NCBI GenBank assembly: GCA_949077355.1 | Contig: CARUQW010000006.1 | Location: forward strand, 1 to 38,090 | Length of the DNA stretch: 38,090 nucleotides | Origin: an uncultured Clostridia bacterium | GTDB taxonomy: Bacteria > Bacillota > Clostridia > TANB77 > CAG-508 | Direction: 5' to 3' | Shown: one piece after another, positions 24,278 through 27,563 of the stretch | How the letters are laid out: the number at the start of each line of letters is the position of its first letter | Numbering within the stretch: the stretch's first letter is position 1 | Program-made: the position numbers and the translations under genes | The notes under the pieces: model-generated | The model's database searches: none | The model's input: the letters and a program-made list of their open reading frames with translations, nothing else | What the model was told of the DNA's origin: nothing

Positions 24278-24330
24278 CCCCTTGTAATATTTTGTGTTTT
24301 ATTATAAAATGCTTGCAAGGAGGGGATAAT

Positions 24331-24732
24331 ATGGAAGAAAAGAAGAAGTTTTATCAAAAATGGTGGTTCTGGACAGAAATAATAATAGTTTTTATAATTA
24401 TATTCTTTATAGCAAATTACAATGGATTATCTAAATATGAAACAGCAGAAAAGTTTATAGATTTAGTGTCAATATCTGAATATAGTAAGGCTAAAAAATA
24501 TATAACCTCTAATTTTGAATGGGACTTAGCAGCAGTTAAAAACAAAGATTTTGATATTAAAGAAAGTTTTTTACATAGTTATGGAAATTATAAAATCGAA
24601 AGTGACGAAGTGGCATATATAGATATAAATGACAAAACACTTAAATTTATGTCTGTGTATAAATTCAAATTAAAACAGACAATATTTGGTTATAAAATAG
24701 ATGGCTATGAAATGGAATATGTATACTACTAA
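24331..24732 (+). CDS. Membrane-anchored hypothetical protein (first gene of the accessory island)
   Basis: MEEKKKFYQKWWFWTEIIIVFIIIFFIANY.. with a GGAGGGG RBS. Confidence 0.6.
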   Translation: MEEKKKFYQKWWFWTEIIIVFIIIFFIANYNGLSKYETAEKFIDLVSISEYSKAKKYITSNFEWDLAAVKNKDFDIKESFLHSYGNYKIESDEVAYIDINDKTLKFMSVYKFKLKQTIFGYKIDGYEMEYVYY

Positions 24733-24757
24733 AAAGGGACTCTCTGGTCCCTTTTTA
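24731..24757. terminator. Bidirectional terminator
   Basis: agggac-tctctg-gtccct flanked by A5 and T5. Confidence 0.65.
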
Positions 24758-25072
24758 TTATCTGAATTTCTTTATAAACATTATATACTTAATAACTTCA
24801 TTTATTTCTTCTTGGTCTAAATCCTTTAACATTTCGCTTAAAGTAAAAAAGACATAAGGATTGCGTATATTAGATAGACCCATTAGATAATCTAATGAAA
24901 CATCAAATAATTGGGCAATTTTAATTTTTATTTCATCACTAGGAACTCTATCTCCACTTTCGTATTGAGAGATAGACGAAACACCAACGTTTAATTTATT
25001 TGCTAATGAAGATTTTGACATATTAGCCTCTTCACGTAAAATTTTCAATCTTTCACTTAATATATCTAACAT
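24758..25072 (-). CDS. XRE-family HTH repressor-like protein (island)
   Basis: MLDILSERLKILREEANMSKSSLANKLNVGVSSISQYESGDRVPS.. Start set at ATG 25072. Confidence 0.75.
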   Translation of the reverse strand: MLDILSERLKILREEANMSKSSLANKLNVGVSSISQYESGDRVPSDEIKIKIAQLFDVSLDYLMGLSNIRNPYVFFTLSEMLKDLDQEEINEVIKYIMFIKKFR

Positions 25073-25162
25073 ATAGACACCTCTTTCATAACTATATGAT
25101 AACACAAATTTTCTTATTTGTAAAATTTTATCACTAAAAATGAAAAAAATCAAAGAAATATG

Positions 25163-25191
25163 TTGACAACTATCTTAATAAGTGATAAAAT
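25163..25191 (+). promoter_or_regulatory. Promoter TTGACA-17-TGaTAAAAT. The 10-bp GTGATAAAAT (25182-25191) is inverted at 25125-25134 (operator-like).
   Basis: Read directly. It lies between the divergent XRE genes. Confidence 0.6.
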
Positions 25192-25199
25192 TTCACTAA

Positions 25200-25448
25200 G
25201 TGAGAAAGGAGGTGTGCAAAACGAAGGTAGTACAAGAAGTGGAAGTATCAGATGAAATGATACGAATGCAAAGAGCAAGGCTTCATATAAGCCAAAAAGA
25301 ATTAGCACAAAGAACGGGAATGACAAGAGAACAAGTTTTAGCAATGGAAAATGCAAAATGTAAGAAAATAACAGAAACATCACTAAAAAAATTAGCGACA
25401 GTTTTTGGAGTAAAAGTAGAAGATTTACTAAAAAAAGAAATGAGATAA
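25200..25448 (+). CDS. XRE-family HTH (Cro-like) protein of the island; start uncertain (GTG 25200 or ATG 25257)
   Basis: ..RARLHISQKELAQRTGMTREQVLAMENAK.. Confidence 0.65.
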   Translation: MRKEVCKTKVVQEVEVSDEMIRMQRARLHISQKELAQRTGMTREQVLAMENAKCKKITETSLKKLATVFGVKVEDLLKKEMR

Positions 25449-25568
25449 TGTGGAATCGCCAAACTCACACCATTATCTCAACCAAGTAGAAATAACTCTA
25501 CCTGTATATAAGTATATCACAGGTAAGAGTCTATTTCAAGTAAAAAATTGAAAGGAGGCTCTTTTATT

Positions 25569-25805
25569 ATGCAAAGAGATTTTATATCACAATACCAACC
25601 AACAGGATTTTACGTGAATTTAGAAAGCCATACCTACGGTGTATGTATCAACATTAAGGACTTTGACAGGAAAGACGAAATACTAGAACACTATTACAGC
25701 GACAAGGACAATCAAGCAAGTATAGAAGCGTGGAAGAGGAATTGGCAAGAACAAGAAAATGAGGAGGTAAAAATAAATGCAAGAAGGGATTGTATTACAA
25801 TCTGA
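25569..25805 (+). CDS. Hypothetical protein (island)
   Basis: ATG 25569 behind an AAAGGAGG RBS. Confidence 0.5.
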   Translation: MQRDFISQYQPTGFYVNLESHTYGVCINIKDFDRKDEILEHYYSDKDNQASIEAWKRNWQEQENEEVKINARRDCITI

Positions 25806-26497
25806 AAATTTACCTAATACCATAGAAGATTTAGCAAAATTTGTTTTAATAGGAAGAGAAAAACTGACAGCAGTACGAGCAGGAATAAGAGCGATAGACA
25901 AGGTACAACTTGCTCAAGAGGTAAGAGAACAAAAGAAGGAGGAGGCTCAGATGTTAGCAGAGGCTTTGCTTGACGCAGAAGCACGAATAGGAGATTTGTT
26001 GAAACAAATACCTAAAGCACAGGGAAAGAGGACTGACATTAAAACAACTTTAGTTCAGCGGTGAACCAAAGTTGGAAACTAAATATGAAACAGCACAAAG
26101 ACTGGGATTTAATGAAAATCAAGTTAAGCGTTTTGAAACATTATCTTCTAACAAAGACATAATAGAGCAGGTAAAAGCTGAAGCAAGAGAAAATGAAGAT
26201 ATTGCCTCAAGGGCAAGAGTGTTTCAAGTAATAAAAGAGAAAACTAAAGAAGAAAAGGAATTTGAGAAAGAATGTAAAGATTTAGACAAAGCACATAGGA
26301 TTTATTGCAAAATAAATGATGCAGTCTACAAACCAATATCAGTAGAAATAACAGAAGAGAATGTTGGATATTGGCTAGAAGATATGTCGAAAAGTGAACT
26401 AGAGGAAGAAGAAAACAATGTAAATCAAGCCATTTATAACTTGCAAGAAATAAAAAGAATAATGAAATCCTATAAAAGTATAAGGAGAGTGAAGTAA
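25777..26497 (+). CDS. Hypothetical DNA-binding-like protein (about 239 aa), joined by a +1 shift at CGG 26059 (the zero frame reads CGG TGA)
   Basis: ..LLKQIPKAQGKRTDIKTTLVQ-GEPKLETKYETAQRLGFNENQVKRFETLSS.. Strong GAGGAGG RBS at 25777. The second ORF has no ATG or RBS. Confidence 0.6.
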
Positions 26498-26499
26498 AT

Positions 26500-26899
26500 A
26501 TGGACCGAAAAGTAAAAGAAACTATTTATAAAGAAATACACGACAAAGGAGAAATAAGCCAAGAGTATATAGTTGGATTATTAAAGGTGTATGATGAAGC
26601 ACCAAATACCAGCAAATTAGTAGAAGCCCACTATAAGTCAAAAGCAAATAGAATTATATCATCATTCAAAGATGATAATCATGTAAGAGATTGTTTTGCA
26701 GTAAAAGAAGGAAAGCAGACAATATATGTCAATATTGCTACGACTAATAAAATCTATTATGTAAAAGATGTAACACGGACTACTAAAAAAGCAGATTGAT
26801 GGAAGAAGAAAATCAATGCAAAAAGCAAAGAAAAGAGTAGAAATATTAGAAGGGCAAGTTGGAATTACAGGAATGGAAAATATGGAATTAGCAAAATAA
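26500..26899 (+). CDS. Hypothetical protein. A +1 shift at CGG 26776 extends it by 40 aa across an otherwise non-coding gap.
   Basis: ..YYVKDVT-GLLKKQIDGRRKSMQKAKKRVEILEGQVGITGMENMELAK. Without a shift it ends at 26799. Confidence 0.5.
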
Positions 26900-26904
26900 C
26901 ACAA

Positions 26905-26930
26905 AGCGTCAGATTAAACTGGCGCTTTTA
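26905..26930 (+). terminator. Intrinsic terminator
   Basis: agcgtcag-attaaa-ctggcgct followed by T4. Confidence 0.5.
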
Positions 26931-26950
26931 TAATGAAAGGAGGGAGAAGT

Positions 26951-27175
26951 ATGAACATTCAAGAAGTTGTAGAAGAAGGCTTAAAATGTAAAAAACTAAT
27001 AGCAAGAAAAAGTGTAAGTTATTTAGCAATTATGCCTACAAACGATGTATTTAACAGAATGATGTTAGTTGATATAAAAACAAGAAGGTTGCCAGGTAAA
27101 GGATGGCAACCAGATGCAAATGATTTAATTGCAAATGATTGGTATGTAACCAATCGAGATTTCCCTAAGGTATAA
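26951..27175 (+). CDS. DUF2829-like small protein (family of Thoeris anti-defence Tad2) - candidate
   Basis: C-terminal ..GKGWQPDANDLIANDWYV.. resembles the W-x-P-x3-DL-x-A-x-DW signature. 74 aa from ATG 26951. Confidence 0.4.
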   Translation: MNIQEVVEEGLKCKKLIARKSVSYLAIMPTNDVFNRMMLVDIKTRRLPGKGWQPDANDLIANDWYVTNRDFPKV

Positions 27176-27500
27176 ATTTAGAAATATAATCGATTACTTT
27201 TTCTAATTTATCAGAAAAACGATTTTCCATATAAATAATACCATTATCAGTAAGATATGTATCATAAGCAATGTCATCTCCAGGTTGACATTGTAAAAGA
27301 CTTTTTGAGTGCAGTTCCCAACAAGCGGTTGCAACATCATCTTTGTTCCAGTTATTCAGTAAGTTTTCTTGTATCTCATCAGAGGAACCTAACCAACGAG
27401 CAGAAGATTTTGAAGAACCTTGTTTAACTTTTGATAAATATTCTTTATAAAGAGTGCAAATGAGAAAATCGTTATCTCTAGACAATTTAATGTCAGACAT
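27165..27500 (-). CDS. Hypothetical protein on the opposite strand inside the late operon (moron-like)
   Basis: 111-aa ORF. Its 3' end overlaps the previous gene by 11 nt (convergent). Confidence 0.55.
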   Translation of the reverse strand: MSDIKLSRDNDFLICTLYKEYLSKVKQGSSKSSARWLGSSDEIQENLLNNWNKDDVATACWELHSKSLLQCQPGDDIAYDTYLTDNGIIYMENRFSDKLEKVIDYISKFIP

Positions 27501-27563
27501 GAAATCACCACCTTTCGACAGAATTATAACATAGGTGGAAAATTAAGAAAAGGAGGGAGAAAT

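Follow-up and report, generated by a model that had tools for sequence, protein, structure and literature searches.

What fills the DNA between the tail assembly chaperone gene and the tape measure protein (TMP) gene of this phage, and does it form one acquired island? The window, a stretch of 38,090 nucleotides from an uncultured Clostridia bacterium, encodes the chaperone G (23706-24152, +; ORF and sequence reading), which a -1 frameshift at the slip site T TTT TTC (24062-24068) extends into GT. The GT stop codon at 24277 is the left border of the slot. The TMP gene (27564-31088, +; 1174 aa, TTG start) is the right border, with Dit (PF22768) and Sipho_Gp37 located downstream. Between the two borders lie 3,286 bp (24278-27563), of which the initial annotation described 24290-27563 as a 3.3-kb inserted island of nine genes in an unusual location. 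The gap does contain nine ORFs, but these represent eight genes, since two of them (25777-26064 and 26072-26497) are pieces of one gene, C10, interrupted by a 1-nt insertion. The anatomy of the block, its presence or absence in relatives, the recurrence of its units, the frameshifts and the family memberships can be read directly from the sequences, and from these we infer the timing of expression and the protein functions.

The chaperone (G/GT) is matched in 46 IMG/VR relatives at 53-80% identity. The gap from GT to TMP could be measured at 39 other loci of this phage family, and 38 of them contain variable cargo of 459-3,261 bp. Direct succession of G/GT and TMP, presumed normal in the initial annotation, is seen only once (L038, 34 bp). 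The cargo belongs to at least 20 unrelated clusters, and all seven of the commonest have a strong transmembrane segment; a single-pass membrane protein is the usual kind of tenant. Many relatives have a promoter-like sequence directly 3' of the GT stop in front of differing cargo, while a few cargos start with a ribosome-binding site (RBS) alone. The TMP RBS is directly preceded by a stem-loop with a T-run in most relatives. L054, a relative with 97% identity, contains the entire block at 100% identity; its divergence ends at ~24260, which by alignment is a recombination joint at the left border. On this comparison, the chaperone-TMP junction is a general cargo hotspot in the family. It is also the site of HK97 gene 15, the first moron ever named (PMC3594210), and the location is not unusual.

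The first of the units that we distinguish begins directly past the GT stop codon with a promoter-like site, TTGTAA-17-TAAAAT (24282-24310, +; 9 of 12 matches). It is followed by the gene for a single-pass membrane protein of 133 aa (24331-24732, +; cluster C3), recognized in the initial annotation, whose hydrophobic segment spans 19 aa with a mean Kyte-Doolittle value of at least 2.0. The protein has no above-threshold family in Pfam, PADLOC or NCBIfam. A 60% identical homologue is present in the same slot of L028, and one of the 39 other loci measured has such a homologue. The unit ends in a bidirectional intrinsic terminator (24730-24757, both strands; A-run/T-run on either side) that is common to the membrane gene and the convergent XRE gene of the second unit. 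It folds with dG values of -15.0 (+) and -14.1 (-) and z-scores of -4.7 and -4.8, and none of 200 shuffles folds as well.

Unit 1, in which a promoter of its own and a bidirectional terminator enclose the gene for a single-pass membrane protein, is a classical moron. In textbook morons the GC content deviates from the flanks, while that of the block shows no difference. Morons are defined as separately transcribed units, each with a promoter and terminator of its own, and the gene 15 moron of HK97 is the closest known case (Juhala et al. 2000; Cumby et al. 2012; reviewed in PMC3594210). Its product, gp15, is small, is expressed from the prophage, inserts into the inner membrane and is reported to block genome injection in a manner dependent on features of the tail region of the incoming phage (PMC3594210). 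The two morons share the location between the same two genes and a membrane protein as product. However, no sequence relationship was found between gp15 and the protein of the window, which lacks a Pfam match. gp15 is YebO-like and confined to enterobacteria, whereas the host here is a Gram-positive-type member of the Clostridia. The block also differs from the HK97 moron in having the GC content of its flanks, and exclusion is only predicted here.

The second unit is organized around a divergent pair of HTH genes, which the initial annotation had identified and which both match PF01381. The leftward gene encodes an XRE-family repressor-like protein, XRE(-) (24758-25072, -; 104 aa; PF01381 4.6e-15, Phage_CI_repr 6.7e-6), a candidate maintenance repressor. 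It reaches 66.6 bits against an RstR-family NCBIfam model, under the cutoff of 80, and homologues in other copies of the cassette are 71% (L060/L079) and 53% (L059/L081) identical. The rightward operon is headed by a Cro-like XRE protein, XRE(+) (~25200-25448, +; PF13443 1.3e-10, PF01381 2.2e-10), with candidate starts at GTG 25200, 25212 or 25239, or at ATG 25257. Its dN/dS against L039 is 0.33.

A divergent control region (25096-25199) separates the two genes. The consensus promoter noted earlier, P(+), is indeed present as a near-consensus TTGACA-17-TGaTAAAAT with an upstream TG (25163-25191, +). Candidates for P(-) are TTGATT-17-TGaTAAAAT (25153-25125, -) and TTTACA-17-TATCAT (25124-25096, -), and this is the sole strong promoter pair of the block. 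Of the proposed 10-bp inverted operators, GTGATAAAAT is inverted as described, but the repeat is in fact 19 nt long (25117-25135 / 25181-25199; 89% complementarity). Its 13-mer core has just two copies in the window, and each repeat copy falls on the extended -10 box (TGnTAAAAT) of one of the two divergent promoters. The cassette copies in L039, L079 and L081 have an identical layout of the control region with differing repeat sequences, and every cassette copy has a TTGACA-17-(TG)-10 promoter and an inverted repeat of its own. The two XRE genes, their promoters and the inverted repeat have all stayed intact in this copy. As first proposed, the block contains its own divergent HTH switch, together with promoters and terminators of its own.

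Downstream of XRE(+), a small variable ORF of 78 aa (25569-25805, +) has no family match in Pfam, PHROG, PADLOC or NCBIfam profile searches. Homologues with 41-49% identity precede C10 in L055 and L057, and unrelated small ORFs take this position in other cassette copies. C10 (25777-26497, +) is a gene for an all-helical, predicted DNA-binding protein of ~240 aa. The insertion that splits it lies near 26059, within a hairpin with a 13-bp stem (26045-26074). The repaired protein has 926 matches at E<=0.001, and its alignments with most of the listed proteins, which have 235-270 aa, span 96-100% of its length; no match was found in Pfam, PADLOC, NCBIfam or PDB. DNA binding is predicted for C10 from its conserved N-terminal ~165 aa, which form the N-terminus of DNA methyltransferases in all ten long relatives tested. 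This module heads N6_N4, MT-A70 and C5 enzymes, a point of likeness to phage orphan DNA methyltransferases. In contrast to these, C10 has a helical C-terminal domain in place of the catalytic domain, and a winged-helix partner, C11, always follows it.

C11 (26500-26899, +) consists of a winged-helix domain and a C-terminal long helix. The gene at 26500-26799 is a truncated allele of this 130-140-aa family. DNA alignment with L039 attributes the truncation to 1 nt inserted near 26775. The tail, now out of frame, runs on to 26899 and has a dN/dS of 0.18 in the original frame. Repaired C11 fully covers homologues of 132 aa. The best Foldseek match of its model is the winged helix of SSV1 F-112 (2vqc; probability 0.96, E 0.035), and from this fold DNA binding is predicted. 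An intrinsic terminator (26903-26928, +; dG -13.7, z-score -5.05, 0 of 200 shuffles folding as well) with a weak T tail closes the unit. Both terminators of the initial annotation, bidirectional and unidirectional, thus fold well, with all z-scores <=-4.7. Hairpins homologous to the second are found directly 5' of the TMP RBS in L039, L036 and L040.

Unit 2 behaves as portable cargo. A membrane protein gene followed by XRE(-), XRE(+), a small ORF, C10 and C11 is found in the relative L039, in a myophage (L081, L082), where TAC_5 and TMP_3 enclose it, and in another siphophage (L079, L080), where it separates TMP from Dit_N. Judged by gene order, sipho- and myophages that are unrelated thus have the unit next to TMP. 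The C10-C11 pair also occurs without the XRE genes: between the chaperone and TMP alongside HicAB, between the genes for prohead protease and major capsid protein, and between those for TerL and portal. A position directly 3' of a Cro-like gene, near an integrase and a repressor, is seen for C10-C11 in at least 12 further elements. Unit 2 is probably a relocated form of this 'repressor | Cro - small ORF - C10 - C11' arrangement, which heads the early operons of other Clostridia prophages.

In the immI region of P22, a maintenance repressor is divergent from an early repressor and a payload gene. Unit 2 looks most like a secondary immunity region of this type. Both are second switches apart from the primary CI/Cro, within a hypervariable part of the late operon; immI (mnt | arc-ant) and sieA occupy a variable region between the late genes 16 and 9 (PMC8022706). 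The parallel is architectural and not homology, because the XRE proteins are HTH regulators while Arc and Mnt are ribbon-helix-helix proteins. C10 and C11 do not resemble Ant, with neither PF03374 nor PF08346 matched, antirepressor activity is only putative here, and the phage already has an AntA/KilAC antirepressor beside its primary Cro. In acr-aca operons, an HTH autorepressor acts on inverted repeats in a strong early promoter. The block resembles them in its strong sigma-70 promoter overlapped by an inverted repeat, in the HTH gene within the same operon and in the location of accessory genes within structural modules. It differs in lacking a known Acr or Aca family member, in the additional divergent repressor and in having its HTH gene first in the operon, not last. 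C10 and C11 are candidates for a payload with antirepressor-like, regulatory or anti-restriction-related activity; for C10, an antirepressor or anti-defence role is only a positional analogy, because no Pfam, PADLOC, NCBIfam or PDB match was found.

Unit 3 is a pair of convergent genes, probably inserted at the TMP RBS. A 13-bp direct repeat, AAAGGAGGGAGAA, brackets it, with the left copy (26936-26948, +) forming the RBS of the first gene and the right copy (27549-27561, +) that of TMP. The window contains exactly these two copies, and 100 shuffles contain none. The first gene, one of those initially listed as small or unknown, encodes a Tad2-like (DUF2829) protein of 74 aa (26951-27175, +). 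It matches PF11195 above the curated cutoff over the full model (30.3 bits, gathering score 25; profile positions 1-72 of 73) and phrog_643 at 3e-12, and 30 of 31 listed proteins contain PF11195. Tad2 proteins are short, phage-encoded and very widespread immune-signal sponges (bioRxiv 10.1101/2023.05.01.538930). The protein of the window is only distant kin of characterised members: phmmer and profile searches give E-values of 0.5-2 against solved Tad2/AcrIIA7 (DUF2829) structures, and SPO1 Tad2 has 89 aa. We found no promoter of its own for this gene, which sits behind the terminator at 26903-26928.

The convergent gene overlaps it by 11 nt, encodes a phrog_750 protein of 111 aa (27165-27500, -; 1.5e-32) and abuts the TMP RBS, as initially reported. 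Direct sequence reading places an extended -10, TGTTATAAT, upstream of it (27523-27531, -); L122 and L123 have TGTTATACT at the equivalent place. In Staphylococcus phage phiSLT and Paenibacillus phage Wanderer, transcription of the homologues (orf121 and gp41) runs opposite to that of the early genes on either side. A Tad2-like gene with a convergent, overlapping and putatively phrog_750-like minus-strand gene of 111-112 aa is present in L120-L123, 3' of Cro in L120 and L121 and 3' of GT in L122 and L123.

Could the eight genes still be a single autonomous defence or anti-defence system, acquired at once and governed by the XRE switch? Every gene lies within one gap, the only strong promoters are at the switch, the weak T tail before the Tad2-like gene could allow P(+) read-through to couple units 2 and 3, and L054 has the whole block. 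However, membrane morons stand alone in about 28 relatives, the XRE cassette lacks the Tad2-like and phrog_750 genes in L039, L079 and L081, and the gene pair of L120-L123 lacks the cassette. In addition, unit 3 is the only part enclosed by the 13-bp repeat, the membrane gene comes with a promoter and a terminator of its own, and PADLOC returned only generic HTH matches and no system. We therefore consider a single island unlikely; by these comparisons the block is a mosaic, and each of its three or more units occurs separately elsewhere. A small mobile element, satellite or nested prophage, targeting this site would explain the repressor and Cro-like switch and the recurrence of the cassette at different junctions. 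It is very unlikely, as the block has no integrase, transposase, replication or packaging gene, no tRNA genes and no terminal repeats beyond the RBS repeat at unit 3, and its borders are gene ends, as recombination between phages, homologous or illegitimate, would leave them. A role as conserved parts of the tail module, for instance as additional chaperones or TMP assembly factors, would fit the position of C10-C11 or the whole cassette beside TMP in four unrelated phage lineages. This reading is extremely improbable: 37 of the 39 other loci, with chaperone, TMP and Dit proteins of 50-80% identity, lack the XRE, C10 and C11 genes, and in one relative the gap measures just 34 bp. These genes are more often found in early operons or between head genes, and their predicted folds are DNA-binding, not structural. 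With the membrane homologue in one of these loci and the Tad2-like gene in two, the block is accessory, as first proposed, and its genes are not universal among close relatives.

Unit 2 could also be a functionless relic of the immunity and early region of another temperate phage, brought in by illegitimate recombination and now decaying. Single-base insertions split C10 and truncate C11, C10-C11 normally lies 3' of Cro near an integrase and repressor, and the unit came without integrase or replication genes. On the other hand, C10 and C11 are full-length in TMP-adjacent cassettes of three other, mutually unrelated phages, dN/dS is 0.13-0.33, and the switch is intact. The split alleles are unchanged on 22 contigs from several samples, and the C10 pieces flank a linker that is naturally variable in the alignment, so that two pieces could still work. 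A relic thus seems doubtful, though less so than the single island. With C10 in two pieces and the C-terminal helix of C11 missing, the payload is probably impaired here while the switch itself is intact, and the frameshifts suggest that this copy may no longer act. The 22 contigs and the recent-looking out-of-frame tail are compatible with both a functional two-piece protein and a pseudogene. Autonomous regulation, as initially proposed, holds for the switch, but with two of its genes frameshifted the module may be partly decayed.

The block is probably the filled state of the GT|TMP cargo hotspot, in which three units accumulated by recombination. The unit 1 protein would be expressed from the prophage and act at the envelope, most likely in superinfection exclusion of the HK97 gp15 or P22 SieA type. 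In the lysogen, XRE(-) would bind the 19-nt repeat over the -10 boxes and hold P(+) off. Upon induction, or entry into a repressor-free cell, P(+) would fire via the host RNA polymerase and XRE(+) would then damp it. The phrog_750 protein would come from its own opposite-strand extended -10 promoter. The defence or anti-defence function first proposed for the whole block narrows to one candidate anti-defence gene: the Tad2-like protein, probably an immune-signal sponge, would be expressed by read-through from P(+) past the weak-tailed terminator or from late transcripts.

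The phage in the window is a temperate siphophage of ~30% GC. Its left end carries an integrase (112-1425, minus strand) and the primary switch, made up of a CI-type repressor (2165-3235, minus strand; S24 peptidase domain), a Cro-like gene (3521-3775) and an AntA/KilAC antirepressor (Ant, 3792-4556). The remaining genes encode SPP1-like packaging, head and tail functions. The tail assembly chaperone (TAC) is encoded by gene G (23706-24152) and its overlapping -1 frame, GT, which is open at 24038-24277 and has the slip site T TTT TTC at 24062-24068. The gene for the 1174-aa tape measure protein (TMP) starts at 27564. 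The slot between GT and TMP is 3,286 bp long and holds all ORFs listed in the initial annotation. Megablast and tblastn searches against 50,697 GenBank phages returned no close relative of the region, and the only useful record was that of bajarodcaudo virus 4.

Upstream of the slot, an ORF with an ADP-ribosyltransferase toxin domain (PF03496; 18425-18883, plus strand) overlaps the end of a MuF-like gene. A NUMOD4/HNH_3 homing-endonuclease-like ORF (~19093-19680, plus strand) lies between it and the scaffold gene; the Pfam labels of both ORFs are taken from the identical locus L051. Downstream, a 53-aa ORF (31097-31258, plus strand) is located between the TMP and Dit genes, and a 53-aa gene occupies the same position in loci L122 and L123. 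Directly 3' of the endolysin gene (36348-36983), the plus strand contains a skipping-rope RNA motif at 36982-37062, which scores 67.3 bits with Rfam RF02924 (gathering score 36.7). Rfam and tRNA scans gave no hits inside the slot.

The G protein led to 46 relatives in IMG/VR, and both borders of the slot could be placed in 39 of them. The distance from GT to TMP is 34 bp in a single locus (L038) and 459-3,261 bp in all others. The near-adjacency of the two genes in L038, compared with the 3,286 bp of the window, places the insert where a moron would be placed. The cargo belongs to at least 20 unrelated clusters. A membrane protein is the tenant of most slots, and the seven commonest clusters (C0-C4, C13 and C16), for which Pfam gave no matches, all contain a strongly hydrophobic segment; HicAB, Tad2-like genes and a self-regulated cassette also occur in the slot. 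In many relatives a promoter-like sequence is found directly 3' of the GT stop codon, a few cargos open with an RBS alone, and in most relatives a T-run stem-loop immediately precedes the TMP RBS. This layout fits the definition of a moron, so the location, considered unusual in the initial annotation, is in fact archetypal: the slot is variably filled in 38 of the 39 relatives. In L054, a locus 97% identical to the window, the divergence in G/GT ends abruptly at ~24260 and the inserted block is 100% identical, which indicates a recombination joint at the left border. Morons between TAC and TMP, XRE switches and Tad2 are already known. New here is that a whole family of gut Clostridia phages systematically uses the slot for cargo.

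The block was initially described as one autonomous island. It is instead a composite of three units, a membrane-protein moron (unit 1), an XRE-switched cassette (unit 2) and a convergent gene pair (unit 3), each of which occurs elsewhere without the others, making a single autonomous island unlikely. In the window, the block is of an ordinary kind, has a composite origin and has partly decayed. If its genes were conserved components of the tail module, close relatives would carry them universally; they are absent from 37 of the 39, which rules out a structural role for practical purposes. A nested mobile element that targets the slot is also very improbable, as the block contains no recombinase or att-like features and no repeats were found that bracket it as a whole. 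Base composition does not mark the block as a moron: its GC content is 0.26-0.36, and that of the flanks is 0.30-0.35. Among the models of PADLOC-DB v2, only the HTH proteins have matches, all to regulator-type or HTH-region models (HTH_VI, RmrA, CapH, control protein, PDC-M69A and REase_II); the membrane protein of unit 1, the small ORF o78, C10 and C11 of unit 2, and the Tad2-like and phrog_750 proteins of unit 3 have none.

Unit 1 (24282-24757) encodes a small membrane protein of 133 aa with one hydrophobic 19-mer at the TAC-TMP junction. The protein belongs to cargo cluster C3, has a 60% identical homologue in L028 and matches no Pfam family above threshold. Judged by sequence, the unit has its own promoter-like site (24282-24310) and terminator (24730-24757). 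HK97 gp15 is likewise a small membrane protein encoded between TAC and TMP. The likeness in position and architecture to HK97 gp15 and P22 SieA suggests that the unit 1 protein is most likely a superinfection-exclusion factor, and the promoter would drive expression of this envelope protein in the lysogen.

Unit 2 (24758-26928) is composed of a minus-strand XRE gene, XRE(-), a control region, a plus-strand XRE gene, XRE(+), the small variable ORF o78, C10, C11 and a terminator. The XRE pair (24758-25448) constitutes a second switch inside the late operon, distinct from the primary CI/Cro switch. Both proteins belong to the XRE family by their matches to HTH_3 (PF01381; 4.6e-15 for XRE(-) and 2.2e-10 for XRE(+)). 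XRE(-) is repressor-like, matching Phage_CI_repr (6.7e-6) and scoring 66.6 bits with the RstR model, below the cutoff of 80. The rightward promoter P(+) (25163-25191) reads TTGACA-17-TAAAAT with a TG upstream. The divergent HTH pair and the consensus promoter of the initial annotation are borne out. The inverted operators it proposed are real as an inverted repeat, but the repeat is longer than it gave, at 19 nt with 89% complementarity. The 13-mer core AGTGATAAAATTT is present in exactly two copies in the 38-kb window, both in the control region and inverted relative to each other, and each copy of the repeat coincides with the extended -10 box of one of the divergent promoters. The two terminators hold up as well, folding far better than shuffled sequence; a simple consensus scanner missed both because A/T runs were counted into the stem. 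With P(+) and the terminator at 26903-26928, unit 2 appears to have its own promoter and terminator.

The control region thus combines divergent promoters and a putative shared operator with candidate maintenance and early repressors. XRE(-) would occupy the repeat over the -10 boxes, keeping P(+) off in lysogens. Induction, or arrival of the genome in a cell without the repressor, would switch P(+) on, after which XRE(+) would dampen its activity. The 16-nt operator half-site occurs in 111 stretches of IMG/VR, in a single copy in every one among those listed, which looks like chance background; there is no sign in IMG/VR of an operator common to other phages. The closest described architecture is immI of P22, and the resemblance of this second switch in the late operon is architectural only. 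The regulators of the window are HTH_3 proteins (PF01381), not the ribbon-helix-helix Mnt and Arc, and the payload is not Ant: neither C10 nor C11 matches Ant, KilAC or AntA.

The arrangement of unit 2 recurs in other phages. In L039 the gene order is kept and the TMP gene follows directly after the terminator; the nucleotide identity to the window is 70-76% over XRE(+) and from mid-C10 to the terminator, with a dN/dS of 0.13-0.33. With a membrane or zinc-ribbon protein upstream, the arrangement is also found in a myophage that has sheath genes (L081, L082), where Phage_TAC_5 and TMP_3 flank it. In an unrelated siphophage (L079, L080) it lies between Dit_N and the TMP gene. Without the XRE pair, C10-C11 are found between the prohead protease and the major capsid protein (L066, L090), between TerL and the portal (L067, L092), and between TAC and TMP of an HK97-type siphophage, beside HicAB. 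In at least 12 other elements they directly follow a Cro-like gene beside an integrase and a repressor (among them L083, L065/L089, L056, L058, L061-L064, L068, L069, L097, L099 and bajarodcaudo virus 4). Each copy of the cassette has a TTGACA-17-(TG)-10 promoter and its own inverted repeat, the sequence of which differs per copy, as expected for diverging repressor-operator pairs. Since C10-C11 follow Cro in early operons, unit 2 looks like the head of an early operon that has been relocated, together with its switch, into structural modules. The XRE/XRE/C10/C11 cassette, recurrent and portable, is new here.

Two of these phages show further features. Bajarodcaudo virus 4 (PQ006095.1, L118) has two divergent switch regions at 25898-31696, one with an integrase, an IrrE-like repressor and an XRE gene followed by the C10-C11-like pair, the other with a second CI repressor, ahead of the replication genes; L083 likewise has two switches laid out in this way. 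In the HK97-type siphophage, which is unrelated to that of the window (L047-L050, L086-L087), the HicA/HicB toxin-antitoxin pair lies in the TAC-TMP slot upstream of C10-C11, at ~6143-6815 in L047. One relative of this HicAB carrier (L048 / L086, 9183-12731) has its TMP split into ORFs of 430 and 746 aa, where neighbouring loci have a single 1182-aa gene.

The ORFs listed in the initial annotation are present in the window, but those at 25777-26064 and 26072-26497 are two pieces of one gene, C10, and that at 26500-26799 is a truncated C11. Removal of one base at CAGCGGTGA (~26059) restores a 239-aa C10 protein. A search with the repaired protein returned 926 proteins (E<=0.001), and most of the 120 homologues listed are 235-270 aa long and align with 96-100% of the repaired protein. 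In C11, the DNA alignment with L039 locates a 1-nt insertion near 26775; the repaired protein has 132 aa and fully covers homologues of 132 aa. The out-of-frame tail of C11 contains no stop codon and has a dN/dS of 0.18 in the original frame, and the lesion appears recent. The split C10 and truncated C11 alleles are present on 22 contigs from several samples, including the MAG GCA_948512165.1, so they do not stem from a one-off assembly error. Programmed frameshifting at the C10 break was considered, but the site lacks a slippery sequence, and the interruption lies in a linker that varies naturally; we therefore treat the break as a probable mutation. A hairpin on the plus strand (26045-26074; 13-bp stem, dG -12.6, z-score -3.4) lies exactly over the C10 frameshift and stop, and could be a coincidence, an insertion hotspot or a recoding signal. 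The payload of unit 2 is probably impaired in the window. The payload of this copy may be a dead relic; the cassette family is not.

The predicted structure of C10 is entirely helical (AlphaFold, pLDDT 76). Neither a profile search nor Foldseek (best E = 2) gave a match in the PDB, and C10 belongs to no Pfam (23 members searched), PADLOC or NCBIfam family. The C10 family comprises 1,242 clusters at 50% identity (E<=1e-3). The conserved N-terminal ~165 residues, for which there is no Pfam model, are fused to N6_N4, MT-A70 or C5 methyltransferase domains in all 10 long members tested. These fusions suggest that the N-terminal part is most likely a DNA-binding or targeting module. The fusions were observed among proteins P0232-P0324, and L107 (9791-11035) is a further case. 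The depositor of PQ006095.1 labelled the C10 variant of that record ParB-like, an identity that we rejected, as C10 of neither the window nor L039 has a ParB/Srx match in Pfam. For C11, a winged helix and, after it, a long helix are predicted (pLDDT 75); the long helix would be lost by the truncation in the window. The best Foldseek match of C11 is F-112 of SSV1 (probability 0.96, E 0.035), which weakly backs a Pfam hint to F-112 (E = 0.04); we use both as an indication of a winged helix only. The genes occur as the first ones downstream of Cro or else inserted between genes for structural proteins. This large unannotated C10/C11 family is new here.

Unit 3 (26936-27561) contains two convergent genes that overlap by 11 nt. 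The plus-strand ORF (26951-27175) encodes a Tad2-like/DUF2829 domain at full length: its match to PF11195 scores 30.3 bits, above the cutoff of 25, and spans positions 1-72 of the 73 in the profile. Of 31 proteins listed, 30 carry the PF11195 annotation. Tad2 proteins sequester 1''-3' gcADPR and inhibit Thoeris (bioRxiv 10.1101/2023.05.01.538930). The similarity to the solved structures 8kbi and 9kzr (phmmer E = 2, profile E = 0.5) is confined to a C-terminal GW...DWxV motif, and the family profile does not convincingly reach the solved Tad2/AcrIIA7 structures. Membership of the family rests on the Pfam HMM, with marginal similarity to solved DUF2829 proteins. The minus-strand ORF (27165-27500) matches phrog_750 (1.5e-32). 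Its homologues in Staphylococcus phage phiSLT (orf121) and Paenibacillus phage Wanderer (gp41) oppose the flanking early genes.

The sequence AAAGGAGGGAGAA occurs only twice in the window, at the RBSs of the Tad2-like and TMP genes, and brackets unit 3. A Tad2-like gene with a convergent, overlapping minus-strand partner of 111-112 aa directly follows Cro in L120 and L121 and GT in L122 and L123; L119 contains the Tad2-like gene without the partner. Such close association suggests that the two genes are coupled in function or regulation, possibly by an antisense mechanism. In loci carrying both genes the overlap is 11-14 nt. An extended -10 box, TGTTATAAT, lies upstream of the phrog_750 gene (27531-27523, minus strand), with TGTTATACT in the corresponding position in L122; this promoter would drive expression of the phrog_750 protein. 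No separate promoter precedes the Tad2-like gene, and the terminator ahead of it has just four U residues; expression of the gene would depend on late transcripts or on read-through from P(+).

It is conceivable, if on balance doubtful, that the cassette of unit 2 is an undescribed portable module of secondary immunity or immediate-early conflict, which repeatedly colonises TMP-adjacent junctions of unrelated sipho- and myophages and has as its payload a conserved DNA-binding pair with an N-terminal module that phage DNA methyltransferases also possess. If so, it might derepress rival prophages or counter restriction, in conflicts between phages or between phage and host. Together with the unit 3 pair and the membrane morons, it would make the TAC-TMP junction a general hotspot for conflict genes in phages of gut Firmicutes. 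The C10/C11 family, without annotation and recurrent at privileged sites, is a candidate for a new early phage function. The slot itself gives a simple positional rule by which accessory, exclusion and anti-defence genes could be mined from the phages of uncultured Firmicutes.
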